Shown one piece after another: positions 9,375-64,000 of a stretch of 64,000 nt of DNA. The notes beneath the pieces were generated by a model. It did no database searches, was not told where the DNA came from, and was given only the letters and a program-made list of their open reading frames with translations. Position numbers and translations under genes: made by a program. Source of the stretch: Squalus acanthias. Its lineage: Eukaryota. Position 1 is the first letter of the stretch; each line of letters begins with the position of its first letter. The stretch is taken from positions 77,564,001 to 77,628,000 of the forward strand of contig CM059432.1 of the NCBI GenBank assembly GCA_030390025.1. The letters run 5' to 3'.

Positions 9375-9751
9375 CCCCACTGATGTGCAGCAAGGTGCTC
9401 TCCAGCTCCTTGCTAGCAGGGAAGTGCAGATGGCCCATGAGAGGGATGACGGTGAGAGGGGACATGCAAGTGGGGCTCTGCTCAAAGTGTTTACACTTCT
9501 CGCCGTTGCCACCCCCTCAGTCAGAGCCCCAGATGGCTCCTCAGATCCCGATGGGCAAGTCTACCCCTGCACAGTGGCAGGAGGAGCAGACTTTGGCGGG
9601 GCCATCACAGACTCCAAAACCCAGAGGACATCCGCCAAGAGTGTCTAAGCAGTCACAGCAGGGAAGTGAGGAGGCTGCCTCTACCTCTGCTGAAGCCACA
9701 GGGGTAGCACTTTGTAGAAGGATGCGGAAGAGAAAGATGGCACGCAAGTAG
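9375..9751 (+). pseudogene. Second copy of Myb-like gene 3' end
   Basis: Diverged duplicate of 7838-8216 (QQGALQLLASR...AGPSQTPKPRGHPPRVSKQSQQGSE). Confidence 0.8.
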
Positions 9752-10049
9752 ATTCACAAGGGTAGCCACTTGGGTGTTATAGTCAATGTTAATGTCAAGT
9801 TTACGTTAATGTGGTGTCAACCATAAAAATCTTTATTTTCACCACTTTCCCATCTTGGACACATTTGTGTGCACCTTTGGAAGTGGCTTAGTGAGTTGCA
9901 GTGAATGGTGAGACATAACGGTACCTCCAGCAATGGGGGTCAGTGTGAAAGGAATGGCTTGGTTATCGTAGGGATCCTTTATGGTGTTGCTGTGGGCTGG
10001 TGCCAACCTGGCGCAGCATGTGGCAGCCATATGGGTGTCCTGCGTAAAG

Positions 10050-11281
10050 TTAAGTAAATCTGGCCATGATGAGGCCATCCCTGGTCTCCCGGGCATCAAT
10101 GTGCTCGGGTGCTGATGGGATCTGGCCCGCAGGTTCCTCCAGCTCCTGCTCCTCCTTATCTTCCAGCTGATGCTCCTCTTCCTCCTCCTGCTCCTCCTCC
10201 TCTGAAGAGGCTGCTTGTTCTGTGCCTTTCTCCTCATGCAGCGCTATCCTCGCTGCTGCACTATGTTGTGCAGGGCGTGGCATACCACATCGATTCTGGA
10301 GACCCTGGCTGGTGCGTACTGAAGGGCTACTCCAGATCTGTCAAGGCATCTGAAGCGCATTTTCAGCATGCCTATTGTCTGCTCTATGACACATCTGGTG
10401 GACATGTGGCTTTCATTGTATCTCTCCTGGGCCTCACTACTTGGCCTCCTCAAGAGTTTCTTCAGTGGATAGCCCTTGTCTCAAAGCAGCCAGCCGGAAA
10501 GTCTGTTTGGAAGAGCGAAGAGCTGAGGGAGGGTGGACTGGCGAAGGAGGAAAGAGTCATGACAGCTGCCAGGGAAATTGGCACACACATGCATGATGAT
10601 CTTCTATGGTTGCAGACCAGCTGCACATTGAGGGAGTGGAAGCCCTTGTGGTTGACAAAGACTCCTGGGTTATGTTGGGGTACCTTGATGGCCACATGTA
10701 TGCAGTCGATGATGCCCTGCACTCATGGGAAGCCAGCCAGAGTGGCAAAGCCAAGAGCCCGCTCAGTAACACTGGCTTCATCAGTGGCAAAGTTGATATA
10801 ATTGGCTGACTTGTCAAAGAGGGCATCGGTGACCTGTGTGATGCATCTGTGGGCAGCCGACTGTGAGATGCCGCAAATGTCTGCTGCAGATCCCTGGAAG
10901 GAGCCTGAGACGAAAAAGTTGAGGGCGCTGGTGACTTTAATAGCCACTGGTAAGGCGTGTCCACCCACTCCTCTGGGCTGCAGGTCTTGCTCGAGCAATG
11001 TCTGCGACAACCTGGCGCGATAGCCTGAGCCTCCTTTGGCACTGCTGCTCAGTCATGTTGAGGAAGCTCATCCTCTGCCTGTATGCCCTGTGTTGGGGGT
11101 ATCACCTCTGGCACGGTGCAGCCCTGCACTGATGCCCTCTGTCCTGTGCAGCATCAGGTCGTTGAGGAGAAGGTTGGTGGTGTTGCTGTTGCTGCGTTTG
11201 GTGTGCCTGGTGCTGCTGGTGTTGGGGCTCATCATGGTCTGATTCTGAGGACCAAGAAGAGACAGTATAAACGGCACCCAT
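10050..11281 (-). pseudogene. Harbinger (HARBI1-like) DDE transposase, frameshifted
   Basis: ORF pieces: [62 protein letters not shown], ending GLIMARFT*; several frameshifts. Confidence 0.92.
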
Positions 11282-12312
11282 GCTGATGAAATAGATGGCA
11301 GGTCAAGTAGAGATCAGAGGAGCAAGCTGTCAATGGTGCGTTAGGTTGTAACAATGAGGTGAGACTGGATGATGACTTTGCTGGAAACACTTGCAGCCTG
11401 TAGAAAGCTAAATGTGTGCTGGGAATACAGTCAGCAACAGCTTCTGCCCGAGGAAAGTGACCAACTATGAGGTGGGAGGTTTTATAGTTCATTACTGCTG
11501 TCATCTAATCAGCTGGAGCAATGACCACTCAACTCCCACCTCAGGCTGACAGACATGGTTCCCGAGCTGCGTGAATCCCCTGGTCATGCAGGGAAATTCA
11601 ATAGGTAGGCTAAAAAAGGCGCTTAAGGGTCTGACAAATACCTGTTAATGATTTGAATTAGGTCGCCCGCCTCTGCCGGTCGGGTCGCTGCTGCACTGGC
11701 AAACGCGCCCGATGGAAAGGCGTGTAGGGGTGGGATGACAGCGTGTTCCCGACCCGCTCCAACTTATTTCAAATTTCCCAGCTGACCCGCCTCCAATCGT
11801 GCCTGCACAGACCCCAGAAAATTCTGGCCGAAGTCTCCATTATAAACAGAATATTTGGATGGATATCAGAGATTGTAGTACTAGTTTTAAAATTGTCCAA
11901 ACTATTAAGTGGATTTCGGCAGCAACCATTCAAACTCCGGGTGAAGCATGTGTCATTCTGGCAAATAATCTTATGGATGCAAGAATTCAATAACTGGTCT
12001 ACTAGACAAAGAGCTGTGCAGTATGAATAGTTACACAAACAACCTGATAAGAAGGGTTACCCGATTTTCCTTGCTGCATTCTTGCAGTGCTAGACTACTG
12101 TAACAGTTTAGGCTTGTTGGGCCAAATGGCCTCTTTCTGTGCTGTAATTCTATGTAAAAGATTAAAGTCAACAAAGATAACATTCCTGCACAAGTCAGCT
12201 ACCCTACTTTACACACTACCTACATAACAGCATTTTATCTTTTAAAAAGCATGAAGCATTTAAATGACATGGATTATGAAGACTTTATTTGCTTAAAGGG
12301 AAACTACCACCA

Positions 12313-26658: not shown

Positions 26659-27203
26659 ACCATGTATAATTCAGGTAGGTTTAGACATTAAGGGGTAAAA
26701 ATTCACTTGGTTGCGCCTCCCGTTAGCGCCTTAAGAGGGCGCTAATGGGGCATTAAGCCGCTAACGCCCGGGCGCAGCGATGTTTGCGCCGCTCGAGAAC
26801 TTAACTTGAGATTGTGCGGCGGCGCTAAAACTTACCGCTGCGACCACCTGCGCGCGCAGATTATGACGTCATTCCATGGTGCAACGCCCTTGGGGCGCCC
26901 CGGAGCGGAAATTGAGTGGCGCCCCCTGCCTTACCGCCTGGCGCTTCCAACGACCGGAAGACTGGAACGCTATCAATCGGTGTGGGGCTGGGGGGGGGCG
27001 CTATTTAAAGGGGGCCTCTTCCTGTCTTTTTCTGTGGTCGACATTTATGCACCACTCGTTCTGAGAGAGAGAGAGAGATTCGGAGAGAGAGAGAGAGAGA
27101 CTTCTACATTGACTCAACGCTTTGTGAGGTAGTTTTGCCTATTCATCCTAACTTTGTTGCTACTTTAGTTGCTGTACCTCATTACTTTTCTGGCAAAGAG
27201 AAT

Positions 27204-28364
27204 ATGGGGGCTGCAATGATTGGGGGCGTCGTCCTGCTCCAGCTGAATCGGAGGATACAGAGACGCAGACAGAGAGTGGCAATGATGGCCAGACGGAGGA
27301 GGGCCATCAGGCGCATGTACAGGAGAGCTTACCCTCCCAGGGTATATCGTGAACAGCTCTCCTACATCCATATGTCCGAGGAGCTGTGTTTGCGAAGGCT
27401 GCGATTCAGCAAGGAGGTGGTCACTGAGCTCTGCCACCTGCTGCAGCCAGATCTGCAGCCTCAGCTGAGGTCCAGGACGTCTCTGTCGGTGGCAGTGAAG
27501 GTCACAGTGGCTTTGAACTTCTACGCCACTGGCTCATTCCAAGCTGCTGTTGGGGACCTCGCCAATATCTCCCAGTTTGCGGTGCATCGCTGCATCCGGC
27601 AGGTCACCAATGCCCTCTTCAGAAGGAGACGAGACTTCATCTCTTTCCCTATGACCCCAGACAAGCAGCGTGACCGTGCTCTGGGCTTTGCGAGGGTAGC
27701 GGGCTTCCCCATGGTGCAGGGCGCCATTGACTGCACGCATGTGGCTTTGCGTGCTCCGCGAGAGAATGCAGAGGAATTCAGGAACAGAAAGGGGTTCCAT
27801 TCCTTGAATGTGCAGTTGGTCTGTGACCACAGACAGGTGATACTCGCTGTCAATGCCCACTATCCGGGCAGCTGCCACGATGCTTTCATCCTGCGCCAGA
27901 CTACTGTGGCAGAAGTTTTCGAGGCACCGCATCAGCCAGTTGGTTGGCTTCTCGGGGACAAGGGGTACGCATTGAGCACCTGGCTGATGACACCGCTCCG
28001 TACGCCAAACACCCCTGCTGAGCTGCGGTACAATGAAAGCCATCAAGCAACCAGGAACATTATTGAGCGCACAATCGGCGTGCTGAAACAACGGTTCCGC
28101 TGTCTGGACCATTCCGGAGGAGCCCTGCAGTACTCGCCTGAGCAAGTTTCGAACTTCGTAGTCATGTGCTGCATGTTGCACAACATGGCAATCCTCAGGA
28201 CCCAGCCAATGCCACCAGGCCTTGTAGCACCACCAGAGGAGGAGGAGGAAGAGGAGGAAGAGGACGAGGACGATGATCATCAGCAGCACCAAGGCGGGAG
28301 GGCGGCCCACAATGGTCAAACTGCAAGGGCCGTCCGTCAACGACTAATAGCAAGCCGCTTCTAG
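27204..28364 (+). CDS. Harbinger (HARBI1-like) DDE transposase, intact, 386 aa
   Basis: Uninterrupted ORF from ATG 27204. N-terminal HTH-type region VAVKVTVALNFYATGSFQ; catalytic motifs [50 protein letters not shown]; acidic C-terminal tract. TATA-like TATTTAAA at ~27002. Confidence 0.95.
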   Translation: MGAAMIGGVVLLQLNRRIQRRRQRVAMMARRRRAIRRMYRRAYPPRVYREQLSYIHMSEELCLRRLRFSKEVVTELCHLLQPDLQPQLRSRTSLSVAVKVTVALNFYATGSFQAAVGDLANISQFAVHRCIRQVTNALFRRRRDFISFPMTPDKQRDRALGFARVAGFPMVQGAIDCTHVALRAPRENAEEFRNRKGFHSLNVQLVCDHRQVILAVNAHYPGSCHDAFILRQTTVAEVFEAPHQPVGWLLGDKGYALSTWLMTPLRTPNTPAELRYNESHQATRNIIERTIGVLKQRFRCLDHSGGALQYSPEQVSNFVVMCCMLHNMAILRTQPMPPGLVAPPEEEEEEEEEDEDDDHQQHQGGRAAHNGQTARAVRQRLIASRF

Positions 28365-28658: not shown

Positions 28659-30482
28659 CTACTTTTTGCCCTTCGAGGGTGATCTCCTTCCCTTGCGCAC
28701 TTCCCCCCTTCTAACCCTACTGCTCCTCCGTAATGGGACCTCAGTGGCTGCAGCAAGGCTGGTGGAAGGCTGCTGCTCGTCAGACCCTGACACTGCAGAT
28801 GCCCCTGAAGGACGGCCTCGACCACTTCTGGGCCTGGAGGGCCCGGTTGCAGACTGCACCAACTCTGCATGGGCGGCAGCAGTCTGTCCTACAGGCGGTG
28901 GCAAGTGCAGTGGAGAAGTGACAGTGTTGGCAGCAGGAATGCTGTCATCGTGCGAGAGGACAGCAACTCCCTGCTCGCCCGACACACTGGCACTCCCACG
29001 GGGCAGCACTTCAGCATCCGGAGCAATCTGCCGGAGAACAGATTGCTGGCCTGCTGCGGCGCGGTGACAGCCCCGGGGACATGTGCACGAACCATCGAGG
29101 TTGGCAGCAGTCTGTGCTCGCGTGGCCTCCATCTGAGTCTGTATGAGAGCAGTCAGAGGTGGGATCACGGCAGCCAGTGACTGAATTGCAGCACTAAGCG
29201 TTAGTGTGGCATCCGCCTGTGCTACAGCGAAGTGCTCCACACTCCTTGCCAGTGACTCAATGCATTCGGGCACCCTTCCCACTGCACCCATGAGCTCAGT
29301 GTGCATGCACACCGCCTGGGTGTTCATTTCTGCAATCAGCCGCTCCTCCTCTGCGTCCATTGCAGTAGGAGTGTCTGGCATACTCTGCCTCTGGGGAGAA
29401 GGCCCCCGTTCTTCCCTACCCCCCGCCATGGCGTTGCTGCAGCCCGCTGGGTCCTGGAGCTTCACCATCATCAGCCCCTTCCCCCCTGCTCCCCTCTGGG
29501 GAAGGCGTGTTCCCAGTGTGGGCATGGGCTTCCTCGGGAGAGGGTGGCACTGATACTCTGGCTTCCTCTTCCTCCTCAGCTGCAGCATCACTCCCATTGG
29601 CAGCTTCAGGGCCCGTCTCCTCAGCTGGTGAATCACCATCTGAAAGCAGGGAGGTACAAGAGTGGCTTTAGCGTGAGGACAGGGTGGCAGTAAGGGAGGA
29701 ATAAGTGCAGCGAGTTAGCAAGTTGTATTGAAAGTGTCAAAGGCTGGTGTTGTGAGGGACAAGTGGAAGGACAGAGGACAAAAAGGTGATGACCTTACCA
29801 TTGCTGTCCACAACGGGGTCGGCGTCTCCAGTGGCGACGGGACCGATCACCCGGCTTGCCACAATCCTGTGGACGCGCTCCTCAAGATCGCTGAGGGGTT
29901 GCAGCTGAGGCCACCCTCCACCTGTCCGTTGCTGCTGTCTCCGATTATGCGCCAGCTTGGCCTGCAAGAAAAAGGACAGCATCTGAGTAAATATACAGCC
30001 ATGGTCTTGCCTGATGTGCCTCCCATAGGTGAATAGCCCTTACTGTATACAGCCATGGTCTTGCCTGATGTGCCTCCCATAGGTGAATAGCCCTTACTGT
30101 ATGCAAAGTGTGGAATGTGTGTGTGTGTTTGATGAAAGGGCCATAGGTGTTGGATGAGTGTTGTGCATTGTGGTTTTAAGACCCTCTGGCCATAGAGTGA
30201 GGTTGAGATGGAGGGATGGAGAGGTATTGAGAAAAAGCCACTCACCCTGACGACCCAAGTGAGGTCGTTGAACTTTTTGCGGCATTGAGTATGGGTCCTG
30301 GGCACCATGCTCCTGGAGGAGACGCTCTGAGCCACCTCCCTCCACACTCTTCTGAACTCGCGTGGCAAAGGCCTCCTGCCACTCTCAGGGAACAGCATAC
30401 ATCGTCTGCGCTCCACTGCGCCAACCAGAGCATCCAAGGCCCGCTCGATGAAGCGATGAGCGCGTTCTCTCACCCTCTCCAT
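28659..30482 (-). pseudogene. Harbinger Myb/SANT-like DNA-binding protein, 3 exons (30482-30246, 29961-29799, 29639-28659), one +1 frameshift
   Basis: Exon 1 MERVRERAHRF...W REVAQSVS...QCRKKFNDL (Myb/SANT-like); GT-AG introns of phase 0 and 1. The spliced frame hits TAG at 29416-29418 just after a 6-G run; removing one G restores the long downstream ORF. Confidence 0.85.
29992..30099 (+). repeat. Perfect 54-bp tandem duplication in Myb intron 1
   Basis: tatacagccatggtcttgcctgatgtgcctcccataggtgaatagcccttactg occurs at 29992 and 30046. Confidence 0.95.
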
Positions 30483-30990
30483 GCTTGGCAGCAAAATGGA
30501 TTCACAGGTCTCTCCAGGCTGAGATTCAAGGCTGCAATGAGCAGGGTGTGGCTGGGGAGCAAGTGGCCCCCCCCGCTTTAAGAAGTGTCCGGCGCCAGTG
30601 TGTCTGTGTTCCCTCGCTAACTGGCAGCAGCTGCGCTGCGCTCGCGCGCTGAGTTAGCGCCTCACTCCTTGGCCTTTGCGCCTTAAGACAGGTGTGCAGC
30701 GCCTGCTTTAGCGCTCCACTCACCTCCCGGGGCGGTAAAAGTGAAGTTTCCTGTCAGTGCCGATAATTAGCGCCAGGCGCTAATATTTGCGTCCGGACGA
30801 TATTTGCGCCCCAAATGGGGCGCGACCTAATTTCTACCCCTAAATATTTTGATGACCTAACTTTCTTATTATTGCATATGCTTTAATACATTGTTTATCA
30901 CAGTCCCCCAGTGGCTCAGTGAGTAAATGAATATTCCCGTGTGGTGCTAAATATAAAGACTAGGAAGGTCCTAGATTCGATCCTTGATCT

Positions 30991-44854: not shown

Positions 44855-47100
44855 ATAGGAACATAGGAACAGGAGTAGGCCGTTTAGCCTCTTGAGCCTG
44901 TTCTGCCATTCAATGAGATCATGGCTAATCTGTGACCTAACTCCATATATCCGCCTTTGTCCCATAACCCTTAATACGTTTAGTTAACAAAAATCTATCA
45001 ATCTCAGATTTAAAATTAACCATTGATCTAGCATCAATTGCCATTTGCGGAAGAGAGTTCCAAACTTCTACCAGCCTTTGTGTGTAGAAGTGTTTCTTAA
45101 TTTCCCTCCTGAAAGGTCTGGCTCTAATTTTTAGACTATGTGCCCTATTCATTGACTCTCCAACCAGCAGAAATAGTTTCTCTCTATCTAGAAGACACAA
45201 AAATCATACTAAAAATAGTGGGGAACTAAGGGGCTAATGAGAGTGAGGAACTTAAAGTAATTAAGATCAGTAGAGAAGAAGTACTTGAGAAACTAATGGG
45301 ACTAAAATCTGACAAATCCTCTGGACCAGATGGCCTACATCCTAGGGTTCTAAAAGAGGTGGCTGCAGAGATAGTGGATGCATTGGTTGTAATCTTCCAA
45401 AATTCCCCAGATTCTACAACGGTGCCAGTGGATTGGAAGGTAGCAAATGTAACCCTGCTATTCAAGAAAGGGTGGAGAGAGAAAAGAGGGAACTACAGGT
45501 CAGTTAGCCTGACATCAGTTGTCAGGAAAATGCTGGAATCCATTATTAAGATAGTGGTAACGGGCTACTTAGAAAATCATAGTATGATTAGGCAAAGTCA
45601 ACATGGTTTTATGAAAGGGAAATCGTGTTCAACAAATTTATTAGAGTTTTTTGAGGATGTAACTAGCAGGGTAGATAAAGGGGAACCAGTGGATGTAGTA
45701 TATTTGGATTTCCAAAAGGAATTCAATAAGGTGCCACATAAAAGGTTGCTACGCAAGATAAGGGCTCATGGGGTTGGGGGTAATATATTAACATGTATAG
45801 AGGATTGGTTAACGGACAGAAACCAGAGAGTAGGGATAAATGGGTCATTTTCAGGTTGGCAGGCTGTAACTAGTGGGGTGCAGCAAGGATCAGTGCTTGG
45901 GCCTCAGCTATTTACAATCTATATTAATGACTTAGATGAGGGAACCAAGTGTAATGTATCCAAGTTTGCTGACGATACAAAGCTAGGTGGGAAAGTAAGC
46001 TGTGAGGAGGTCACAAAGAGCCTGCAAAGGGATATAGACAGGTTAAATTAGTGGGCAATAAGGTGGCAGATGGAGTATAATGTGAGGAAATGTGATATTA
46101 TTCACTTTGGTAGGAAGAATAGAAAAACAGAATATTTTTTAAATGGTGAGAAACTAATAAATGTTGGTGTTCAGAGAGATTTAGGTGTCCTCGTACAGGA
46201 AACACAGAAAGTTAGCATGCAAGGACAGCAAGCAATTAGGAAGGCAAATGGCCTTTATTGCAAGAGGGTTGGAGTACTAGAGTAAGGAAGGCTTACTACA
46301 ATTGCACAGGGCTTTGGTTAGACCACACCTGGAGTAATGTGCACAGTTTTGGTCTCCTTTTCTGAGAAAAGACATTCATGCCTCAGAGGTGGTGCCACAA
46401 AGGTTCACTAGATTGTTCCCTGGGATGAGAGGGTTGTCCTGTGAGGAGAGATTGAGTAGATTGGGACTATACTCTCTGGAGTTTAGAAGAATGAGAGGTG
46501 ATCTCATTGAAACATCTAAGATTCTGAGGGGGATTGACAGAGTAGATGCTGAGAGGTTGTTTCCCCTGGCTAGAGAGTCTAGAACTCGGGGGTATAGTCT
46601 CAGGATAAGGGGTCAGCCATTTAAGACTGAGATGAGGAGGAATTTCTTCACTCAGAGGGTTGTGAATCTTTGGAATTCTCTACCCCAAAGGGCTGTAGAT
46701 TTTGAGTCATTGAGTATATTCAAGGCTGAGATAGATAGATTTTCTGACTCTAGGGCAATCAAGGGATATGGAGATTGGGCGGGAAAGTGGAGTTGAGGTC
46801 GAAGATCAGCCATGATCTTATTGAATGGCGGTGCAGGCTCGAAGGGCCATATGGCCGACTCATGCTCCTAATTCTTATGTTCTTATGTTCTTACCCTATC
46901 TGTTCCTCTTGAAAACGTCGATAAAATCACCCCTTAACCTTCTAAATTCCAGGGAATACCACCCTAGTTTGTGTAATCCCTCCTCATAATTTAACCCCTG
47001 GAGTCTGGGTATCATTCTGATAAACCTGCACTCCCTCCAGGCCCAATATATCCTTCCTAAGGTGTGGTGCCCAGAACTGCTCACAGTACTCCAGGTATCC
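44855..47100 (-). mobile_element. CR1 3' fragment (44855-45190 plus 46893-47100) split by a younger CR1
   Basis: The halves rejoin as tctctatcta|ccctatctgttc, matching the intact copy at 56965-56988. Confidence 0.88.
45191..46892 (+). mobile_element. CR1 LINE, 5'-truncated, RT domain
   Basis: [44 protein letters not shown]; tail (ttcttatg)n. Confidence 0.95.
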
Positions 47101-47305
47101 CTTCTGTTGCCCAACCTGGTAGTGAGGGCAATCATAGAGAGGTCTGTGGTATAGGCCATGGCTATCCCAATCCACTAACTGAAGGTGGATAGGTGACCAT
47201 AAAATGCACAACAGTGATCATCAATGTAGATGAAATATTTATCCTTCTATCCTTCATCTTTATGGGTTCAAGTTTCATTCCAGGATTTGAGTGTATAATG
47301 TAGAC

Positions 47306-48733
47306 CAGGGTTGGGCAATTATTTGGGCTGGAGGGCCAATAACAAGTTTTGGTGAGCTGCTGAGGGCCGTACACCGATGTTCCCCCCAAGGTGCGCGGCC
47401 GCACGGTCACGCAGCAATTGTGAGGTCTCGCGCAGGCCGCTCACTGGCTCCTGCCGCTGGAAGAGATACCACGCAGCAAATTTAAAGGGACTGCACACGT
47501 TGGTGAGAGCAAAGTGTAAAATTGGTAAATTTGAAACATGCCAACCCATGGTGTTGATCATCACTCCCACTTGCACCCTCCCAATAATTTATAAACAAAA
47601 ATTCAGATAGTAGTCAGATACTATTTTAAATACACAAAATGTAGTGTAAAATAGTAAAATCTTCCAGTACTAAATGAATGAAATGATTGATCGATCGATC
47701 GATTATATGTTGTACTGAAAGTCTACGTGACTGTTTGGCAGAGCGCTCGAGTCTGCAGGGCCTCCGACGTGAGAGGTGTTCTCTTTTTAGTGTGCTGAGT
47801 ACGGGAGCCCGAGGCTTCGCAAGGCCTGAACAACAATCGCGTGCCATTACCGGGATCCACTCCTGTGTCTAAGACGGCGATGCGAACCCCCCTGCCATCG
47901 GACTCCGGGTACCGGGAGAGGAAAGACGCAGGGCCGGTCTCTTTCTTCGGTAAAAGAGTCATCGAGATGAGCAGCCATGACTCGACTCAGACTAATGTGC
48001 AGCTCGAGTTCCAGCTCATGGGCCGTATTTTGCCCACCCTGGGATAGAAGCTCCCCCGCTCTTTACTGTGAAACTCCCAGAAATGGCAGGGACCCGACGT
48101 AACTGGGTCTGCGCCAGAGTTACGCCAGGAGACTGGCGGTACCCCCGTGGAATTCAGACATCACCTTTCACCCAATTGCACCAATAAACAAAAATAGCAT
48201 TTTATAACTCACTGGAATGAAATCAAGCCCAGGACTAATTTTGAATTAGTCGCTAAAATTCCTTTAGAAACTAGTTGAGACTAATAACTCGCTGCTAGTT
48301 TTTTAAAATGTTCTAAGTCAACAATCTTCCAATCGATTCGATTGTGTCAATTCCGAGTCATATTGCCAATGACGTTATTTTAACTATTTAAACTATTTAT
48401 GTTATCCTGCATTTATCTGGAAAGTTTGCACAGATATATAAAACTGAACTCACAAACCGTGAGTAACTTGCCTTTCACATTGCAGTGACGGAGCAGAAAC
48501 TGGGGTTTCGGGTGTGATAACGACACTTTGATGCAGCGAACAGCAGATTCGATTTGCCCGCCTCTGTTTCTGGTTATGACTCCCCTGCTGCCTCGGAGAC
48601 AATGACCCACCCCCTGATGGTACGTGGGGCAGGGTCAGGCTAGGGTTCGGCCTCAAGACCAGGCTTTGGCGGGCCGGATTGAATCCATTGGCAGGCCGGA
48701 TACGGCCCACGGGCCATATTTTGCCCGTCACTG
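47306..48733. mobile_element. Non-autonomous hAT (Charlie-like) element carrying captured host DNA
   Basis: TIRs CAGGGTTGGGCAA / CAGTGACGGGCAA (rc); 8-bp TSD ATGTAGAC / ATCTAGAC; typical subterminal GGGCCGGAT...GGCCCACGGGCC motifs; no transposase. Confidence 0.88.
47849..47978 (-). pseudogene. TPP2: Captured 5' coding fragment of tripeptidyl-peptidase II
   Basis: [36 protein letters not shown] matches remembered human TPP2 N-terminus [36 protein letters not shown] at 32/36 positions. Upstream ATG (47978) MAAHLDDS is out of frame, consistent with a short deletion. Confidence 0.88.
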
Positions 48734-51700
48734 ATCTAGACTGACATTTCAGTGAAGTACTGAGGAAGTTCTCAGCTGACTATCAAAAACTGGGAGCACT
48801 GTACAACAGAGGCGTCAACCATGGAGAGAAAATCGCAAAAGTGCTATCTTTCAGATCAGACATCAAACCAGGCCCTGTCTGCATGTTCCAGTGGTTCAGA
48901 TGGATATATTCCATGGCGTTATTAGAAGATTAGCAAGTTCTGCTAGTTCCTGACCAACATTCCTCGCTCAACCAATATAACAAAAAACAACTTAACTCGT
49001 CATCCATCAAATTTGCTGTTTGTTGGATCTTTGTGTGTGCAAATTAGCTGCAACATTTGCCTACATAACAATGGTGACTACACTTAATTATACATCATTC
49101 TGAATCAGTCCCTGTTGTTATAGTGGGAGCTAATTACATTGTTAGAACTGTCAGAACTCAACCTAAGCTGCTTCTATACAGGACCCACTGACTGCCATTC
49201 GTCTCTCCATGCCTGCTGAACTGACCATCCCATTTTGTCTGTCACGGTGGGGTACACACAATCAGCTAGTTATGACCTGACAAATATCTACCAGGAATAC
49301 ACAATCAGCTAATAATGACTTAACAACAATCATGATGGATTTGCTTGACCCGTAAGTTGGCAGCCACAGAGGGAACCCTCCATTGAACAGTGATATATTG
49401 CTCGACGAGGTAATGGGATACGTTTTGAACCATGAACTTTCCTCAGCCACTGAGCTCTTTAAAGAAAAGGATGTGTGTGCACATCACATTCTAATGACAG
49501 TGAATATACCCACTGCTGAAAACAGTGATTAGTCAAAGAGTCTCAAGGGTACAGATGACAGCTGATAACAGACTGTTAACCCCCATGAGTACTGAAATTT
49601 CTCTGCAGCTTACAATGTGGAGGCATTATTTTATGAAGTAAAAGGCAGGGTCGGTTTTATACTGCACCTGAGGTCTGTGAATCAGGGTAATATTATCAGG
49701 GTTTTGTCCACTCACCCAGAACTTTTTCTGATGACGCTACATGACCTTCAGCTACCCTGAGGTGAAAATCATCACTATATCCTCATATGTATTTAATTTT
49801 GCTTCTAAACCACACACTACTAGTGTATAAATCAACATTATCAAAAAAAAATTTGCCTAAAAAATAACAGTGACTGCACGTCAAAGAAATTCAGATGTGC
49901 AAAGAGCTTCAGGACATTTCTATGATGTCCTAAACCACCATAAGAATTAATGTAAAGGTTTCATCTGTATATATGTTGCTCCACTATCGTACTGTTGCCA
50001 TTTTAGCAAAACATCTATCAAACATTCAAGTGTATAAATCATTCTGCTATATTTATAGGACATCAAAACTTGTCATTGGGGTGTGGTTATACAGCACAGT
50101 TTACTGTACGTTTGATTGCATGTCATTTTAAGCAGAGCTATAGTTAGTATATTCATTTGATATTGTTTATGCTCACTGGAAGTTAATTAAAATGCCTTTC
50201 AAATCAAGTAATTTGAGGAAAAATGGTGCAAAGGAGCAATTTCTGACCAAATAGATTTGGGGTTTGGTATTTTTCTTCTGACCAATTTACATTTACATTT
50301 CAAAATAATGCCATTTTGGCACTTTGTATGGAGTTGGAGTAATGGAAGCAAAATAACTGGTTCTTCATTAGTAGGTCACACAAGTGCTAATCATCTAAAA
50401 TTGCATTCAAAGTTACAGTAAATATTTTATAAGTAAGATAATTTCTACATTCATTACTTTTTTTATCTTGCTCTTTTATACCTGCTGCATCATATATTAC
50501 TCCAATTCAAAATAATGGGTAGGCAATCTGATCTCAGGCCTCTGCAATTCTGTAACCAATCACTTGGAAGTGCAAGAGACCTGCCCAGATTCACCCACAC
50601 TGATATATCCTCTCCTGTTTTGAGGAAGTACCTTTGCTCTGCTCCTCCCCAATAATACTAGTGATCAGTAACTCATTGCATGAGGAATCAAGGGTGCGAA
50701 GCAGCATCACAGTGTCCTGTCCTGTTTCTCCTAATTCTACCTTTTTTCCCAAACATCCACTTTCAAACTTGGATAATGCTTTCCAGCTAGATCACTGGCC
50801 ATACGCCCCTATGAGATAGTTCTCCCCCTCACTTTGCTGTCATGTGAAGACTAGCACTTTAGTCTCAAGGGTTAGGATCACTTCTTATTGAACATGTGTT
50901 ACCTGATGTGTTTAATAAGCAACAAACCAGATCCTATTCAAAGATTTAAAGCAACACAGTCTTCATGAAAAAATGCTGAGCAAAGCCAGAACATTGAACG
51001 TGTCATTTTCTTCATGATTATGTCACATTAAAATTAATACAATGACGTGTTCTGAAGCAATTTACATCAATACAGGAGTTGCTTGTAAACAGATAAACCA
51101 CTTTTTGCTACCTTTAAACCACCTTTAAATATTTTAGCAAAGATAGTCTGTAAATGTTAAAGATAGCAAAAACTGATACTCATAATTTAAGCTTCACTAC
51201 ATGCCAGAAAGAGTAATTTGATGATGAGTTGGTGATGATTATTACTTCATTTCTAAATATAGTTATATTTTTTATGATAAGGCTGGCTAGTCACTGTGTG
51301 TGTTATGCCAGCACTCATCTTTGGGCTTTATTAGAATAAGAAAATCAGTTTAAATGAGAATTGCCCAAAATACCATTATGATAGGCTTTTCAGAACTAAA
51401 ATATACGTAAAAAGTGAAGAATAAAATTGTGACCAGAAAATCGTGTCTTGTGCATTTGATTGGTTATTCTAACAGAGTACAGGGACATGGAATGTGTAGT
51501 ATCATAAAAAGATTCATGTGAATAACTACATTAGCAATAAAGATAACGTAGTGTGGCTGCTGCTTCTGGATGATTGCACAGAGGAAATTGAAATCTCAGT
51601 GTTTATAGATAATAATCATTAAATATGCTTTGTATAAAAGAAAAGACCGCTCTGTTGTCGACGAACCTCACGGTAAATATTATGGAAAATATGCTCATGA

Positions 51701-52130: not shown

Positions 52131-54700
52131 CTATTTGCTTAATTGGTACTTCAGTTTCTGAAGTCTGGACGGAGTCAAACTCATGATGTGTTCATGATCA
52201 AGTAGTTCACGATCATGTCTTGGTTCATTTCTAGCAGAGATCATTTGAACTACATGCACAGTTTGGATTTTGTCACCAATTTCAACCAAATATCTCTTGG
52301 TTCCACCAACTTCTACTATGGTTCCTACATCCCACTTGTGTGAACCCGACTTGCCAGGGGGACTGAGAACACGAACACACTCGTTTTGTTTGAAACTGCG
52401 TTCTTTCTGATTGGTGTCATAATAATGTTTCTGACTCAACTGTTTCTATTCAACTCTTGAGGCCAATTTCAGTTGAACAAGACTCAATCATGTTCTCAAT
52501 CTCCTTTTCATCAAGAGTTCTGCTGGGGTATATCCAGTTGTAGTGTGCAGAGTAGTTCTGTACTTCAGCAAGAAATTTGCTAAACGTTGCTTCATGCTGA
52601 GTCCCGAACAACACTGCAACACTTGCTTTTTGAGAGCTTCTTTCACTATTCTGACTGACCTTTCAGCTGCTCCGTTTGAAGCTGGATGATATGGTGGAAC
52701 GAGAGTGTGTTTGATACCGTTCGGTTTCATGAATTCTTGGAATAGAGCAGAACGGAACTGAGGGCCATTATCAGAAACAAGCTCTTCAGGTAAGCCATGA
52801 CATGCGAAGATAGACCTCAACTCATCTATGGTACATTCAATATTTGAACCCATGTGTTTCACTTCAATCCACTTTGAGTAACTACAAGTACCAGGAAATA
52901 AGTATTTGCTTTCTCACAGAAGTCTACATGTACTCTCTGAAAAAGGTCTACTTGGCCATGACCAGGGTTGTAGTGGAGTTTTGGGTGGTTTGTTTCTGCA
53001 ATTTTGACAAAAGCTGCATTTGCTGACAAGTGATTCAAGATCACTGTCCAATCCAGGCCAGTAAAAAAAGCTTCTTGCAATTGATTTCATACTGACGATC
53101 CCTGGATGTTCAGTATGAAGTTCGGCCAGAATTCTATCTCTCCAAGAAGTAGGTACCACCACTCTGCTTCCCCACTTGATACAGCCTTGCTCACAAGACA
53201 ATTCAGTACGACAGTATTGGAATGGTTTCAATTCTGTGTCCATACACTGATCAGTCCATCCATTCAAGGTGTTTTCATACACTCTTTTCAGTACTGAGTC
53301 CTTTTGAGTCTCATGTGCAATCTCAGTTACATTCACGGGAAAGTCTTTGTCAACTGCACCTAGTGTGAAAATAGCACCTTCACTCCCAACACACGAGTCC
53401 TCATGTGGCAACCTGGACAAGACATCTGCGATTGCATTTTGCTTTGAAGTGCGATATTCAATTGTGTAGTCATATTGTGACAACAACACTGCCCAATGTT
53501 GCATTCTTGATGCGGCCGTTGCAGGGATGGCAGATTTGGGCCCCAATATTGCTAGGAGCGGTTTGTGATCGGTTATCAGGGTAAACTTTCTGCCGATCAG
53601 GAACTGTTGGAGTTTCTTGATTCCAAACACTATAGTGAGTGCTTCCTTTTCAATTTGCGCGTAGTTGCTTTCACTCTTTGTGAGGGTTCGCGCTGCGAAC
53701 ATGACTGGTTTCTCTTGGCCGTCATCCATTACATGGCTTATGACAGCTCCCACACCATAGCTGGAAGCATCACACGCTAACAAGCTCGCGCTCTGTGCCG
53801 TAGTACACAAGTAGAGCATCGCTAGACAGACTTCTCTTACAAGCGTCATAAGCTTCCTGTTGCGCTTTCGTCCACTTTCACTGGACATCCTTCTTGAGGA
53901 GCTCGTGCAATGTAGCTAACATGGTTGCTAACTCAGGCAAGAAACGTGCGTAGTACTGGACCATTCCAAGGAAAGATCTTAACTCAGACACAATCTGTGG
54001 CTTTGGAGCATTGATGATAGGATCAACCTTTTCCTTCACTGGTTGCAAGCCATTTGCATCAACTTTCAGACCAAGGTACACAACCTTGGGCTGCACAAAA
54101 GCACATTTGCTCCTTTTCAATTTGACGTTGTGGGCATTCAACTTTTGAAGCACTATATCTAACACTTCTAGATTTTATTCCTCGCTGCTTATTGCGATCA
54201 GCACATCATCTTGATTGCATAAGCAATTTGGAACTCCTTGCAAAATCTTATCCATCATAGCCTGGAAGATTTTGGGGGAGGACTTTACACCATACGGCAG
54301 CTTGGTGTATGAGTACAGTCCCTTGTGTGTATTGATGGTGAGATACTGTTGACTCTCTTTGTCAACATTCAGTTGAGCGTAAGTGTGCGACTGGTCAAGC
54401 TTGGAGAAAACCTTTGACCCAGAGAGTGCAGCATACAAATCTTGCGATGTAGGTAATGGGTACTGCTCATTGTCAACTGCTTGGTTGATAGTAACTTTGT
54501 AGTCATCGCACAAGCGTACAGTTTTGTCTGCTTTGGGCACTACCACGATCGGGGTAGCCCATTCACTTTTGTCAGTTTTTAATAGCACTCCGTTATCTCT
54601 CAGCTTTGCTAGCTCTCCCTCCACCTGACTTTTCAACGCATAGGGGATCAGCCTTGCCTTACAATAGACAGGTTGGATTTGATGCGGATATTCGCGTCAT
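52131..54700 (-). pseudogene. Gypsy pol (RT, RNase H, integrase), frameshifted
   Basis: WATPIVVVPK, LPYGVKSSP, QDDVL, ACDASSYGVGAV, TDHKPL, H-x3-H...C-x2-C, SDNGPQF, HPASNGAAER. Confidence 0.92.
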
Positions 54701-54781
54701 ACCCAGTGTTGCCCTCATAACTGTCTGTGAACATACTTTTGTACTTGTTCAGCATTGTGTTGAGTCGCTTCTTTGAAGCAT

Positions 54782-56049
54782 CTACAGTGCAGATATTTTC
54801 CAGTCTAGTTTTAACTTTCTCAACCAGTCTTTACCCATGAGGGTTGGCCTGTTGTTGTAGCTCACTACAATAATAGGCAGCTTTACTAACTGGCCATTGT
54901 GTTGAACTGTACATTCCATTTGTCCACATGTCTCTAGGATTTCTCCGGAGTAGGTTTTCAACTCTACGGTACTCTTTGTAAGTGGTATTTGATTAAACTT
55001 ACTCTCATATGTGTCCTTACTCATGATAGAGCAGTCCGCCGCCATGTCGATACACATATCAATATATTGCTCGTTGATCAAAAGTTTTGTATGGAAGTCT
55101 TTCTCACGACTGCCACTGTTGCTGCTAGTGGCATAGATACTGTAGATGCCTAGTTCTTCAACATCAGGTGCGTTCACTTCAATATCGTGAACTCCTCCCT
55201 TTTGTTGTTGCTGCTTTGCATTGCCACTAGAATGGTTCTTACTTCCTGCTTTAGATCTAGCTCTGCAAGCTGTTGAAATATGGCCTTGCTTCTGGCAGTG
55301 AAAACACTTTCCATTTCTGTATTGGCAGGACTGTGGTGAGTGATTTCCATTGCAGCGACAACAATTCACTGAACTGCTCTCACCGACATGCTTTTGACTC
55401 GGTCTCTTAGCTTTAGGTTTAGCGGTGGCTTTGTGACTGTAGACCTCAGCTGCACTAGTCACTTGAGTTGGATGGAGCTCCCTAGCATTCTTAGACGCCA
55501 TCTCCATAGATAGGGCAATTTTGCATGCTATGTCAAACGTTAGGTTCGGAGTGTTCAATAACTTGGACTGTGTGCGCTCATCCATCAGTCCACACACAAA
55601 CTTATCTCGCAAAGCACGATCCAAAAATGTGCCGAAGTTACAATGCAAAGACAGGTTCTTAAGAGCTACAATGTACTCACTGATGGTTTCACTTTGATTT
55701 TGGTTTCTGGTACCAAACTTAAATCTCTCTGCTATTTCTAACGGCTTTGGGTCAAAATGGTCCTCGAGTTTCTCAACAATGTCTTCAAACGACAAAACCT
55801 TTGCTTTCCCTGGCGCGAGTAGGTTTGTCAACGTTCCGTAGACATCTGACCCGATCGCTGTTAGAAAATTGCTTTTTTCCGTTCATGAATTATTTTATTT
55901 TGAGCTTCAACATTCTCATCTGCACCTTCGGTCTCAATAACGTTATTGGCTTTAAAAAAAAACTCCATCCGCTCAATGTAAGAACTGAAAGGTTCGCGAG
56001 CTCGGTCATACATGCCAAGGTTTCCGATGGATCCCATAGGCATGGCCAT
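54782..56049 (-). pseudogene. Gypsy gag-protease, frameshifted
   Basis: YIERMEFFFKAN, ERFKF, LRDKFVCGL, zinc knuckles CCRCNGNHSPQSC and CFHCQKQGHISTAC, protease IDMAA...LMGKDWL. Confidence 0.9.
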
Positions 56050-57867: not shown

Positions 57868-59719
57868 ATGCAGTCTCAGCGCCAGAAAGCTGCGCTTAGG
57901 TTTTCAGATTCCTCCCTGGAAATCCTGCTCCAGGGAGTGAGACCAAGGAAGGAGGTCCTCTTCCCTGGTGACAGCAGGAAGAGGCCAGCCAGTGAAACCA
58001 AGAGGGCATGGCTGGAGATCGCCCAAGAAGTGAGCAGCAGTGGTGTTATCAGCTGCTCCTGGATTCAATGCAGGAAGAGATTTAATGACCTCATGAGGTC
58101 AGGAAAGGTGAGTACAATACCAGATTCAATTACATCCTGATGTGTGTGTCACCTCAACTCCATCACTCTGCCTTCCCAAGCCTACTCCTGCACATCACTC
58201 CTCACACCAACTATCTTGCAGGGGCACCCATCCCTCACTGTCTATGCACCTACTCACGTCCCTATCTGAATATCCATCACTGACACACACCCTCAGCCTA
58301 ATGCAATCATAGAAAGTAATGCCATAGAAGGAGGCCATTTGGCAATGTCATGCCATTCCCTCATAGTCACCCTCTACAGATGTAGCCCATCCATCCCCGA
58401 CACTCATTCCATCACTCTCACTCAAAGTTCTCTTCTTTCCCTCCTTGCAGGAGAAGAGAGCCCGGAACAACAGGGAGAGACTGAGAACCGGAGGTGGTCC
58501 TCCAATTTACACTACATTGACGCCAGCAGAGGAGGAGGCACTGGAATTAAGCGGTGTGGCAGAGCTACTGGCGGTGGGAGATGGAGAGAGGGGGACCCCC
58601 AGCAACCTGGTGACAATTGAATATCATACAGCCACATGGCATACAACAGTCACTCATGGTGACTTAATGTCAGCAGCCAGTGAAATATCATGATGTACAT
58701 AATGGTAAAGTTAAACATTCTTATCATAAGAGTTCTAATTCATGTCTTTACTCTCCCACAGGCCCATCAAGTGCCCCCTAAGTGTCCAGCTGGAGGAGGA
58801 AGATGACTCCTCAGAGGAAGCTCCACTCTCTGAGGGTGCACCGTCACCAGACCCATGCGCACCCAGCACCTGCGCAGATAGGCACACTTCGGTGGGTCCT
58901 GTGAGACATAGAGTAGTGTTGTCACCTGGTATCTCACACATCACAAGTGAGCAAGAGCAGATGGTGGAGACAGGGACAGCAGTGGAGACTCCTTACCGGA
59001 GTGTGCAGGATGCTCCAAGCTCTGCTCAGCTGGATGCAGATGCTGAACCTCGGGGGCCATCTACAAAGAGGTTGATCTTGGAGGAGCAGCAACAAATGTG
59101 CGAGGCTCTGGCAGCTTTTCCAGCTGCGATGTGCATGATTGTAGAGAGAATGGAGGAGTCCATCTCCAACATGAGCAGCACCATGTCGCAGGCGATGGCG
59201 ACGATGTGCTCTTCCATGGAAAGGATGGCCACCTGCATGGAGCAGCTAATGCGCCAGTCAAACGAGAACCTGCTTGCTGTGAACAACAGCTTGCAGACTC
59301 TTATTGAACTCATCTCTAGGAGAGATACCAACGTAGACTTGGGCATTTATTGCCCCACTGATGTGCAGCAAGATGCTCTCCAGCTCCTTGCTAGCAGAGA
59401 CGTGCAGGTGACCCATGAGAGGGATGATGGTGAGAGGGGACATGGAAGTGGGAGCTCTGCTCAAAGCGCTCCCACTTCTCCCCCATTACCTCCCCCTCAG
59501 GCAGAGTCCCACATGCTGCTTCGGATCCCGATGGCCGAGTCTGCCCCTGCACAGTTGCAGGAGGAGCAGTCTTTGGCGGGGCCCTCACGGGCCCTAAACC
59601 CAGAGGACATCTGCCAAAAGTGTCTAAGCAGTCACAGCAGGGAAGTGAGCAGCCTGCCTCTACCTCTGCTGAAACCACAGGGAGTGCACCTCGTAGAAGC
59701 ACTCGGAAAACAAAAATAA
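57868..59719 (+). pseudogene. Harbinger Myb/SANT-like gene, 3 exons (57868-58107, 58451-58609, 58762-59719), frameshifted
   Basis: Exon 1 RFSDSSLEILL...AWLEIAQEVS...IQCRKRFNDL; aag|gtgagt, ttgcag|, cccacag| splice sites; small indels. Confidence 0.85.
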
Positions 59720-60035
59720 TACAATCCTAGATGCACAAGAGTATGCACAAGGGTGATGCCAAAATGTTAGTGCTAAGTTTCAGTTCTATTTATCACGCAC
59801 ATAAATTTATTTCTTTGCACCACTTTCCCATCTTGTCCATTTTTGCCTGCTACCTGGGAATTGGCCTTGTCAGTTGGAGTGAATGGTGAGACATTACTTA
59901 ACCTTGAGCAATGCATGTGTGTTTGACAGGAATAGTTTGGTCATTTTAGCTCTGCTTTGTGGTGTTACTGTGGGGGTGGGGATGGGGGGGTAGTTGGTGC
60001 AGCATCTGCGTGACAGATGTGTGCACTGGTGCAAC

Positions 60036-61270
60036 TTAACTAAATCGGGCCATTATGAGGCCATCCTCGGCCTCCCGGGCAGCAATGTGCACTGCTGATG
60101 TGCACCTCAGGTTCCTCCTCCTCCTCCTCATGTTCCACCTGCTCCTCCTCCTCCGAAGAGGCTGTGCGCTCTGCGCCTTGCTCCTCCTGCAGCTCTAAGC
60201 CTCGCTGCTGCGCTATGTTGTGCAGCATGCAACAAACGACAATGATTCTGGAGACCCTGGCTGGTGCGTACTGAAGGGCTCCTCCAGATCTGTCAAGGCA
60301 TCTGAAGCGCATCTTCAGCATTCCGATTGCTTGCTCTATGACACATCTGGTCGTCATGTGGTTTCATTATAATGCTCCTCAGCCTCATTGCTTGGCCTCC
60401 TCAAGGGTGTCATCAGCCACGTTTTCAGTGGATAGCCCTTGTCTCCAAGCAGCCAGCCAGTAAGTCTGTTCGGAGGTGCGAAGAGCTGAGGGAGGGTGGA
60501 CTGGCACAGAATGAAAGAGTCATGACAGCTCCCTGGGAATCTGGTGCACACATGCATGATGATCTTTTTATGGTTTCAGATGGGCTACACATTGAGGGAT
60601 TGGAGGCCCTTCCAGTTCACGGACAGTCCTAGGTGATCTGGGGGTGCCTTGATAGCCACATGTATGCAGTCGATGACACCCTGCACCCGTGGAAAGCCAG
60701 CCAGAGCCACAAAGCCGAGCGCCCACTCAGTAACACTGGCTTCGTCAGTAGCAAAGTGTACATAATTGGCTGACTTGTGAAACATGGCATCGGTCAGCTG
60801 GGTGATGCATCTGTGGGCGGCCGACTGCGAGATCCTGCAAATGTCTGCTGCAGATCCCTGGAAGGAGCTTGAGGTGAAGAGTTGAGGGCAGTGGTGACTT
60901 TGACAGCCACTGGTAAGGCGTGTCCACCGGGTCCTCTGGGCAGCAGGTGTTGTTCCAGCAAGTTACAAATGTCTGCCATGATCTGGCGTGATAGCCTGAG
61001 CCTCCTGAAGCACTGCTGCTCAGTCATGTCCAGGAAGCTCATCCTCTGCCTGTGTTGGGAGTGTTGCCTCCGGTGAGGTGCACCCCTGTGCTGACCCCCT
61101 CTCTCCTGTGGAGCATCAGGTCGCTGAGGAGAAGGCTGCTGGTGTTGTGGCTGCTGGTGTTGTTGCTGCTGCTGCTGGTGTTGTTGGTGCTGCTGTTGGT
61201 GTTGTTGGTGCTGGGGCTCATCTTGGTCCGAATCTGAGGTCCAAGGGGAAACAGCATAAGTGGCACCCAT
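60036..61270 (-). pseudogene. Harbinger DDE transposase, frameshifted, with N-terminal poly-Q/H tract
   Basis: MGATYAV...QHQQHQQQ..., [45 protein letters not shown], ending MARFS*. Confidence 0.92.
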
Positions 61271-64000
61271 GCTGATCTGATAGATGGCAGGTAAAGTGGA
61301 GATCATGCCAATGTAGTGAGAGTGGCTTCCAAAGTTACAGAAATCACCTGCAAACTCCTGAAAGCAAAATCTGTGCACAAAATGGTGTCAGCAAGAGCCT
61401 TTCCCTTAGGCAAGGAAGCAGGTATAAGGTGTGTGCATTTATGTGCTTTTTCCAGCTGTCCCTTAATGAACTCGCACAATGGCCACTGAGCTCTCACCTC
61501 CCCTTCACAGGCAAGCTTCAGGCAGTCCATGAATCCTGTGCACAAGCAGTAAAAGCTGAAACCTCAAGTTAAAAAGCCTCTTGAGGGTCTCTCACCGAGC
61601 TGTTAACTACTTCAATGAGGTCGCCTTGGGTCCGTGGCATGCTGGGAAACTCACCCGAGTTAAAGGCGAAAGTCGACGGGATGAAGGCGGGTTCCCGACA
61701 CACTGTCAATTTCCACACTTTTAACTGCTGACCCGCTCGCGAACCCGCACTCTCTGCAATGGGAAAATTCCGGCCCTAATGTGTGGGCCAAAATGTGAGA
61801 TTTAACATGGGACCTGAATTCCATTAATATGCCATTTAAATGAGGCTCGTGTTTGCCTGTGACGCAGCTTCACTCGAGCTCCCAAGCTCACACATCACAA
61901 AATGCACAAGCCATGCGCCCAATCCTATGCCCCGCATCGATCGCCAGTGACACTCTGCGCTGCCAACGGAATCTTGAAAAATTTATGCATAGATTTCAAG
62001 ACTGAAAACCATTCTAGAAATTCAGATGGCATCATTATCAGTAAGAGTGGTTTGTTCATCAGCTGAACCACATGTCTGAATGACTGACTGTAGTACACTG
62101 ACAGACAGCTAGTACATTTAACATAATATGGAACATTAATTTTGGACAATGCTGGTTATTTTGATATCACAGGTTAGAGCCAAGTGATGTGGGGAAGAGT
62201 TATTTTAGATGGTGATATACAGCAAAATTTACCATCCTTTCATAATATTGTCTGATCGTCTCCAGATTTTAAGGTAAGCTTTTCCTATAGATGCTGCACA
62301 GCTATAAATTCTCGCCCTTCCAGCTTTTGTATAATAGCAGAAGAGTCACAGTGTAATCTGGAGGAGACACCTTTGGCCTGTGTTGTGTATCTCAGTGTAA
62401 TATAGGACAACATTGCAGTAACATCAGCATGAGTTCAGAAACTTGCTTAGCTTCTGGCTATAGCAACCAATACAAAGCCCACAGCTGTAAATTCTGCAGA
62501 CATCAAAGCACTAGTGAATCTACCAATGTTGTTCTAGGTATGTGAACCGTGATAGCGACTCAATTGCTTTTGCCTAATGAACTTGGCTTTCTTTAAAACC
62601 CATATTTTCTGCAATACAGGCCTCTAATATCAGCCACGTTCTAGGGGATCAGACAAGGTAAAGATATGTAGCTTTGTATTTGCTCTGATGATTTTTGATA
62701 ATGTACTTAACCAACATCATTCATGTATTTCTGAAGCACACTGGATGATAAGCTCAGATCAGCTACAAATACCACCGTGTAGCCTACACTTCATCTAGGC
62801 TGCAAGAGATCTAATTAAAACCGATGTACCAATTTAGTCATCTCTTCATCACAGGTGGGCCTGAATTAATGGGAAAATGGAAGTAAATTACCTACATTTG
62901 GCACATCCAGATTGGTGGGCTAATCCTTCAGCAGTGACGTGTGATAAACATGACAAGGTAACCTTCTTATTTTTTTCAAAAAGTAGTTCATTTTTAATTT
63001 AATTTCAATGTTACTGTGGGGCAAATCAGTAATACAGGCTAAGATCTGCAAATGCCTACATTCTCTCTCCGCAGTCTTTAATTACAGGCAATGAAACTGT
63101 CTTCAGATTTTTCATAGTAAGTTCATACATTGTCTTCTGGAGGAAGAATATATAAATCAGACCAGTTAATCCAAGTTTAGAAGATTATTTACTGTCCTAT
63201 CTTCTGATTAAACTGCAGCACTCAGAGCATCATGTTTAACAGAGCCAGCAGTTAGTCCTTCTACTCCATTCTAAGCATGCTGTTATAATCAAAATCGAGA
63301 ATGGTATATCTTGATCTTAAGATAGTTTAAATTATGTGTTTGAAAACAGTTTTCTTATTTTTTTTTAAAAACAAATTGATTCTTTTTATTTCTTAATTAG
63401 ATCCTTAGTGTTGTTGCCCCTCTGCCTCCCCTTCTCCTTAAGCCATAAGCTAATGGAATGGCTCTCTGGGGTATGATATGCCCTGTGCATTTTTAATTGT
63501 ACTAACTGGAGCCTTACATCTGAAGTGCTCTGTTCACATCAATCCAAATATATTTCCAATTAGTGGTGGCAAACTCTTGACCGTTTTCCCGAGCCCATTT
63601 ACTTGTGACTTTGGGCGATTACCAAAGTTGTTCTGCGATTTATCATTAGGAGACAAACATTCACTGTGTGGGCTCGAACCCCTGGAAGCTTTTCCATCTT
63701 GCTCAAATAAAGCATTGTTCTGCCATATTGGCAGAGAACTGGTAAAAATTCTCTGAGTGAAGGTAGTGAAGTGGAAGCAGCATTCAAGGTTGGGTTCAGA
63801 AGCTGGAGTCTATGGTATATCTTCCCAAAAGGCAACAATCTTGTTCACATCCACAAACTGTGGAGCAGTCTGAAGTTGTATTAAAAATACAAAATGCAGA
63901 GCAGGTTTATCACCATCTGAATGGGAAAGACAGGATAATGTTCTGAGCGCAACCTTTCATCTGAACCAACCTATCTATACCAGACAGGTACTGGCTGACC

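Follow-up and report, generated by a model that had tools for sequence, protein, structure and literature searches.

A piece of the first exon of TPP2 lies within positions 47306-48733 of the DNA analysed here, enclosed between sequences that look like the ends of a hAT-type transposon. The locus raises the question of how a host exon came to be there, and of whether it was left where it fell or was spread along with the element. The original prediction described a Pack-hAT, a non-autonomous hAT transposon with the start of TPP2 as its cargo, and guessed that such fragments may have been dispersed. We followed this up in the window, that is, the whole stretch of 64,000 nucleotides, and in sequencing runs of related organisms. 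The features are as follows.

47264-47297, plus strand: left piece of the interrupted dispersed repeat, start approximate; resembles the loose-end consensus of the paralogues before 48734
47298-47305, plus strand: left TSD ATGTAGAC, nnnTAnnn pattern (sequence; 7/8 identical to the right copy)
47306-48733: hAT-type element, whole unit, 1428 bp
47306-47655, plus strand: left arm, with TIR CAGGGTTGGGCAA, subterminal GAGGGCC motifs and then an AT-rich interior
47656-47830, minus strand: likely start of TPP2 intron 1 (translated read-through of protein P0001, 24.0 bits)
47831-47978, minus strand: coding part of TPP2 exon 1, ATG at 47978 (protein and PDB matches)
47979-48013, minus strand: probable remnant of the TPP2 5' UTR, at most 35 nt (about 12 nt matched, E 0.74)
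48014-48041, minus strand: inner right end (CAGGGTGGGCAAAATACGGCCC on that strand), shortened in this copy (19/22 against the outer right end)
48042-48668, no strand: second non-coding block of the long form, repetitive, depth below that of the first half
48669-48733, minus strand: outer right end, with GGCCCG/GGCCGG subterminal repeats and TIR
48734-48741, plus strand: right TSD ATCTAGAC (sequence)
48742-49085, plus strand: right piece of the interrupted repeat (high depth; loose ends at 48769, 49034 and 49085)

Element ends and the interrupted repeat

The outer TIRs, CAGGGTTGGGCAA on the left and CAGTGACGGGCAA on the right (reverse complement), are alike at 10 of 13 positions, imperfect and of hAT type, and they are flanked by 8-bp TSDs that agree at 7 of 8 positions, a match with a chance of about 5e-4 for one pair. 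GGGCCG/CGGGCC motifs were found near both element ends, and at the outer right end two pieces of paralogous contigs end at 48733-48735 and continue into other flanks. Sixteen of the 25 listed frames of at least 35 aa were searched and no transposase family was detected in them, with one sub-threshold, unrelated match. With short TIRs, an 8-bp TSD and no transposase in the frames searched, the proposed non-autonomous hAT element is supported.

The element ends presumably resemble those of Charlie/MER58 elements. The nnnTAnnn pattern, which fits both outer TSD copies and also a site inside the element, GGATAGAA, is the TSD consensus given for Buster-family hATs (PMC3517528). On the basis of this pattern and of the end motifs, the element, which carries no transposase by which to place it, is likely of the Buster/Charlie type, and the earlier label "Charlie-like" is founded on the TSD pattern and on these presumed end motifs.

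By self-BLAST, neither the element nor the host repeat has another copy in the 64-kb window. The fold of the element's first half gave a z of -3.2 on 20 shuffles, for which TIR pairing may account, and the Rfam search returned one sub-threshold match, attributed to chance. A 12-nt near inverted copy of the left TIR, at 47107-47118, lies 190 bp outside the element, where it adjoins the end of a LINE fragment; it may be a chance likeness.

The window also holds other mobile DNA. An open 451-aa frame at 27009-28364 (plus strand) resembles what is presumably a Harbinger transposase, and it is faced by a frame at 29847-30653 (minus strand) that we take to be its Myb/SANT partner; related decayed pieces are seen at about 7000-11800 and 58500-61300. 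Three long frames at 52914-55882 (minus strand) presumably belong to a Gypsy-type LTR retrotransposon, with likenesses to its gag, RT and RNase H/integrase regions, and a tandem array with a 50-bp period and copies about 98% identical occupies 6697-6998.

Database searching listed 23 sequencing runs from 9 studies, 20 of which contain part of the stretch. Contigs of four runs, one per organism (X1, X6, X12 and X15, the first of which may be the window's own source), were aligned at 80% likeness on 47100-49600, and the rows listed from this alignment are 40 of the 898 for letters, 15 of the 377 for joints and 24 of the 2576 for loose ends. Between 89 and 117 contigs per run align from 48734 rightwards, their leftward consensus resembles the left flank at 47280-47297, and one contig jumps from 47282 to 48741. 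As these paralogues of the host repeat lack the element, the repeat was cleanly split by it, as had been claimed. The repeat is presumably a SINE of the SacSINE1/Deu type; the SacSINE1/Deu-SINE family is reported to occur in sharks (PMC5499810). Within the host repeat, the paralogues leave at 48769 (72-101 contigs per run), and the following stretch of about 60 bp, at 48770-48830, is common to the relatives at this locus.

Contigs of X12, X15 and X1 bridge the right junction at this locus, that of X1, possibly the source of the window itself, with 0 differences over 383 bp; no bridge of the left junction appears among the rows listed. The unique flank differs at 0 of 531 positions in X1, 3 of 545 in X6 and 11 of 565 in X12, and a flank piece from X15 differs at 64 of 1026, repeat DNA included. 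Being common to relatives, the insertion is old and was in place before at least three of the four organisms diverged; no empty orthologous site was found, as the relatives compared share the insertion. Of the 362 positions changed in X1, 154 are C>T or G>A, the pattern of methylated repeats, although the CpG o/e of this element copy is 0.82 vs 0.40 for the window.

The TPP2 first exon and its flanks

The TPP2 likeness of the minus strand falls into two blocks when compared (tblastn) with the TPP2 of Scyliorhinus torazame (P0017). Positions 47849-47956 correspond to its residues 14-49, with 32 of 36 identical, and include the Asp codon of the LDTG motif at 47867-47869, and positions 47952-47978 correspond to residues 1-9 (8/9) in a different frame; the last six codons of the exon, at 47831-47848, are decayed. 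The sole PDB match of the cargo peptide is TPP2 (3lxu, E 2.4e-8), and almost all of its named database matches bear the TPP2 label. The N-terminus that matches best points to a host of shark-like kind. The parent gene is clear at the protein level, and a search that had been set as a possible refutation of the TPP2 N-terminus on this strand returned TPP2.

Between the two blocks 17 nt are missing, at 47951/47952, where a single nucleotide stands in place of the six codons that the native protein needs, and the frame from the native ATG stops after 43 codons. The native ATG and the frameshifting deletion of the original prediction are both present. The blocks overlap on CTTTT, which suggests that the 17 nt were lost by a microhomology deletion. 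When four full-length TPP2 proteins of cartilaginous fishes were compared with the 64-kb window, no other match was found at E<=1, as anticipated, and since nothing else of TPP2 is there the segment is not the working gene. A native exon 1 was likewise considered and rejected, given the frameshift, the early stop, the TT read at the exon 1 donor position of this copy and the lack of any other exon in the window.

The deletion also places an ATG at 47962 in the TPP2 frame, which creates a 79-codon ORF (47726-47962, minus strand) made of 36 TPP2 residues and an intron-derived tail. Searches with this 79-aa frame returned only TPP2 N-termini among the matches inspected (2 matches; best 150 of 534), and a motif screen of the matches inspected showed no database protein of the chimeric form and no translated element copy.

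In order to see what lies beyond the exon, we used P0001, a database protein that is identical to the skate protein P0043 over its exon-1 part and continues beyond the splice site. Its 67-residue tail was scored against the window DNA with a codon model that allows frameshifts, and it aligned collinearly from 47828 to 47656 with 24.0 bits, a score reached by 1 of 114 control tiles, this being one read-through from another cartilaginous fish that was chosen after the likeness had been noticed by eye. The distal block of the alignment gave 22.1 bits by itself, reached by 0 of 76 control tiles, and the other 38 of the 39 read-through tails gave at most 16.2 bits on the same DNA (mean 12.0). The cargo thus likely extends about 170 bp into TPP2 intron 1, and intron-like sequence beyond the exon indicates, if indirectly, that genomic DNA and not spliced mRNA was captured. 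A spliced retrocopy was rejected, as exon 1 is followed by this intron-like sequence and by no exon 2 sequence.

The 5' UTR is weakly supported, the upstream alignment having no significance. With at most 35 nt captured upstream of the ATG, the element probably contains no TPP2 promoter. The cargo would span about 47656-48013, with boundaries deduced from these alignments, and its border with the left arm is not sharp and possibly lies further left than 47655. Exon 1 was thus correctly located before, but the cargo is larger than had been described and likely takes in the beginning of intron 1. Between the element ends stand 130 bp or more of exon 1, and about 360 bp of TPP2 are likely, which fits the length asked of Pack-TIRs by Tan et al. 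2021, 100-5000 bp of host non-TE sequence between both ends of one TIR element. The cargo has a CpG o/e of 1.07 vs 0.40 for the window.

A multicopy family with a composite long form

The contigs were then read for other copies of the cargo. At exon positions 47883, 47901 and 47906 a letter other than that of the window is carried by 42-81 distinct contigs per run, in all four runs. At 47901 and 47883 the family letters give the native Tyr and Leu, so the changes there are private to this copy. Paralogous pieces (those listed) differ from the window by 9-14%, and they form an overlapping chain (47341-47743, 47519-47855, 47662-48018, 47902-48224, 48021-48246, 48328-48624 and 48454-48733) that starts in the left arm, crosses intron and exon and reaches right ends of either kind. 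Three of them cross 47902-48008/48018 with 0 gaps and therefore share the 17-nt deletion, so that the family appears to have spread a dead TPP2 fragment. The summed depth of the exon bin 47856-47939 reached 3921, 1776, 726 and 1661 in the four runs vs 12.9, 10, 3.8-8.3 and 3.6 on single-copy flank, giving ratios of 304, 178, 88 (with 8.3) and 460, which are to be read as an order of magnitude, since summed depth is not copy number and short overlapping contigs inflate it.

At the left TIR, 25 contigs of X1, 21 of X12 and 43 of X15 (the last at 47301) leave at 47301-47306 into flanks that agree with one another at 0.35-0.42, and the flank consensus ends in TCTAAAG in two runs, like a target site; for X6 there is no such row among the 24 of 2576 loose-end rows. 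It is through overlapping pieces that these varied left flanks would be linked to the cargo. Thus several copies with the same cargo exist, as in multicopy Pack-TIRs; dozens of distinct copies, and likely a hundred or more, are present in each of four related organisms. The guess that TPP2 5' fragments had been dispersed is supported by these data. Three other observations concern depth and arm structure: in X1 the depth over 47436-47519 peaks at about fourfold that found elsewhere in the left arm, which suggests a short motif common to other repeat families; some contigs have 24-36 other letters in place of 47495-47594; and the bin 47100-47183 has zero cover in all four runs.

These counts bear on two other explanations. 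In one, gap filling would have copied TPP2 DNA into an empty hAT that already sat at this site, a single-copy event of the kind that is the commonest Pack-TIR origin in Tan et al. 2021 (PMC8277862); we give it next to no credence, as it is largely refuted by the number of distinct contigs over the exon and by diverged paralogues with the same cargo and the same deletion. In the other, which we regard as very improbable, the TPP2 piece was multiplied by segmental or tandem amplification, by a Helitron or by a retroelement, with the hAT ends as mere bystanders. A whole copy together with both its flanks is spanned by no contig, the varied flanks being seen at each end separately and distinct TSD pairs around TPP2-bearing copies not being observed, and left-arm depth exceeds cargo depth in places, so that some ends belong to other families. 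Against this, the TIRs mark where depth goes up and comes down, the contigs depart precisely at the left TIR, and on the right at 48733-48735, into flanks that differ, no tandem array was found, and the TSD fits the outer ends.

The unit is, in addition, not simple. The stretch 48014-48035 shares 19 of 22 positions with the outer right end and finishes in a TIR at 48041, directly followed by GGATAGAA, a site of the nnnTAnnn type that has no matching partner TSD in this copy. One paralogous contig of X1 has 39 extra letters at this inner end, which resemble 48671-48709 (29/39 by eye). A complete short element (47306-48041) followed by a further 692 bp with a second right end makes the unit a composite. 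The single 1428-bp unit proposed before holds as regards its ends and the clean split of the repeat, but its second right end, at 48014-48041, had been overlooked.

The second block has no Pfam match and no significant match to the first half beyond the end motif, and a 12-nt repeat common to it and the left arm has no extension. It is likely the body of a sister hAT element. As a TPP2 promoter it is unsupported, with only 12.0 bits against the translated region upstream of P0001.

Both forms are found among the contigs. The short form is seen as a joint from 48011 to 48669, with a depth of 86.6 in X12, and ends in a full right end. The long form is seen in contigs that join 48008/48018 to 48070 (X12 and X15) and in a piece at 48021-48246 (X1). 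The lowest bins of the second block have 16-69 times the flank depth, and the first half is several times deeper than the second. These bridges in three runs, together with the depth, make the long form a smaller subfamily and not a local accident.

The opposite order, in which short forms arose by deletion from an ancestral long form, or a one-off nest at this locus, seems quite unlikely to us. The joint 48011 to 48669 can be read as a deletion, and the unpaired GGATAGAA site would be compatible with it. However, the paralogues that bridge inner end and second block in X1, X12 and X15 speak against a local nest, the inner end is a complete right end in a paralogue and has an nnnTAnnn site next to it, as a former terminus should, and the first half exceeds the second several times in depth.

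Taking these data together, we hold with considerable confidence that the locus is an old member of a hAT-type family, multicopy and non-coding, in which a frameshifted TPP2 exon 1 was likely spread as passive cargo; this reading includes the likely capture of genomic DNA with the start of intron 1 and a likely spread in trans by a transposase of the Buster/Charlie type. The ends, the TSD, exon 1, its deletion, the many paralogues, the varied left flanks, the short and long forms and the shared insertion in relatives were observed, and the following course would connect them. A copy of about 360 bp around the CpG-rich first exon would have come to lie between the two ends of a small hAT element through template switching during repair or replication. 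The 17-nt deletion, at a likely CTTTT microhomology, would have killed the frame early, before most of the amplification. The short form of about 770 bp would then have multiplied, and one short copy may have landed at the GGATAGAA site upstream of the right part of a sister element, where the transposase could move the left end with the farther right end, giving a long form that multiplied less. Finally, one long copy would have entered the SINE before the sampled organisms split.

Most likely the cargo does nothing. Sense, antisense or small RNAs from the copies might nevertheless act on the first exon of native TPP2, an alternative that can hold on top of the passive spread and that we judge unlikely. 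Many copies match that CpG-rich exon and the cargo keeps its high CpG o/e, such cross-talk is reported in maize (10.1101/777037), and some human Pack-TIRs are transcribed (PMC8277862). By contrast, a divergence of 9-14% would limit perfect small-RNA matches, the short piece upstream of the ATG probably holds no TPP2 promoter, and the predominance of C>T and G>A changes in X1 is that of methylated, decaying repeats.

Relation to known captures and significance

Pack-hATs are known in animals. Across 100 animal genomes, the survey of Tan et al. 2021 counts 370 Pack-TIRs, of which 208 are hAT, nearly all as single-copy repair accidents, with only 4 multicopy cases (1.4%), among them the frog Pack-hAT-N8_XT, which has three copies and carries the CAPSL 5' UTR (PMC8277862). 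The elephant shark, the sole genome named as a shark there, has 0 Pack-TIRs, and TPP2 is absent from the text and the 12 supplementary files of that paper. Its filter asked for at least 90% identity and a unique best hit (PMC8277862), and would tend to miss old high-copy families and to favour young unique captures. The element described here shares with the multicopy animal cases the non-autonomous hAT ends around a few hundred host-gene bases, the transposition after capture and the distance from the parent gene, with no other TPP2 in 64 kb. Unlike the frog element, it is found in dozens of contigs, likely at least 100 copies, in each of four organisms, and it has a coding first exon and a composite form with two right ends. 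Its copy number exceeds that of the published animal Pack-TIR cases compared, and for an animal TIR element it is unusual in copy number, age and composite build.

Other systems resemble it in part. The bat Helitron HelibatN3 carries NUBPL's promoter, its 5' UTR, exon 1 and part of intron 1 in about a thousand copies, and capture in the bat study was biased to 5' gene ends (PMC4224331). The 5' gene end with part of intron 1 and the high copy number in a vertebrate are common to both, but HelibatN3 is a rolling-circle Helitron, not a TIR element, and holds a promoter. Plant Pack-MULEs and Pack-TYPE elements show the same capture of gene fragments at the DNA level by non-autonomous TIR elements, often multicopy (PMC8903248, PMC8277862), in plant hosts and not, as here, in a vertebrate hAT. 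Buster/Charlie-type hAT MITEs presumably share the short TIRs starting with CAG and the GC-rich subterminal repeats, and they share the 8-bp nnnTAnnn TSD (PMC3517528), whereas the present element carries host exon DNA and has no transposase remnant. The literature covered, on TPP2 with transposons, shark capture, Anolis chimeric hATs and transduplication (Repbase/Dfam and most subscription papers being outside this scope), holds no report of the element, and a repeat consensus of this family may already exist without annotation.

These data support the dispersal of a coding exon by a TIR element of a vertebrate, in the manner of plant Pack-MULEs and bat Helitrons; such families would be overlooked by surveys whose filters favour young unique matches. 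The composite form would record how an element grows by turning to an end that lies farther away. For practical work on these genomes, the copies would interfere with mapping, PCR and the annotation of TPP2 exon 1, and as many dated copies they offer a ready test of first-exon cross-silencing of a parent gene in a vertebrate. A wider idea, to which we assign a small chance, is that sharks harbour a hidden class of high-copy Pack-TIRs, in which unrelated cut-and-paste families amplify housekeeping exons a hundredfold and silencing RNAs reach the CpG-rich first exon of the parent gene; if true, the epigenetic conflict that gene capture is described to drive in maize would have its first example among vertebrates.
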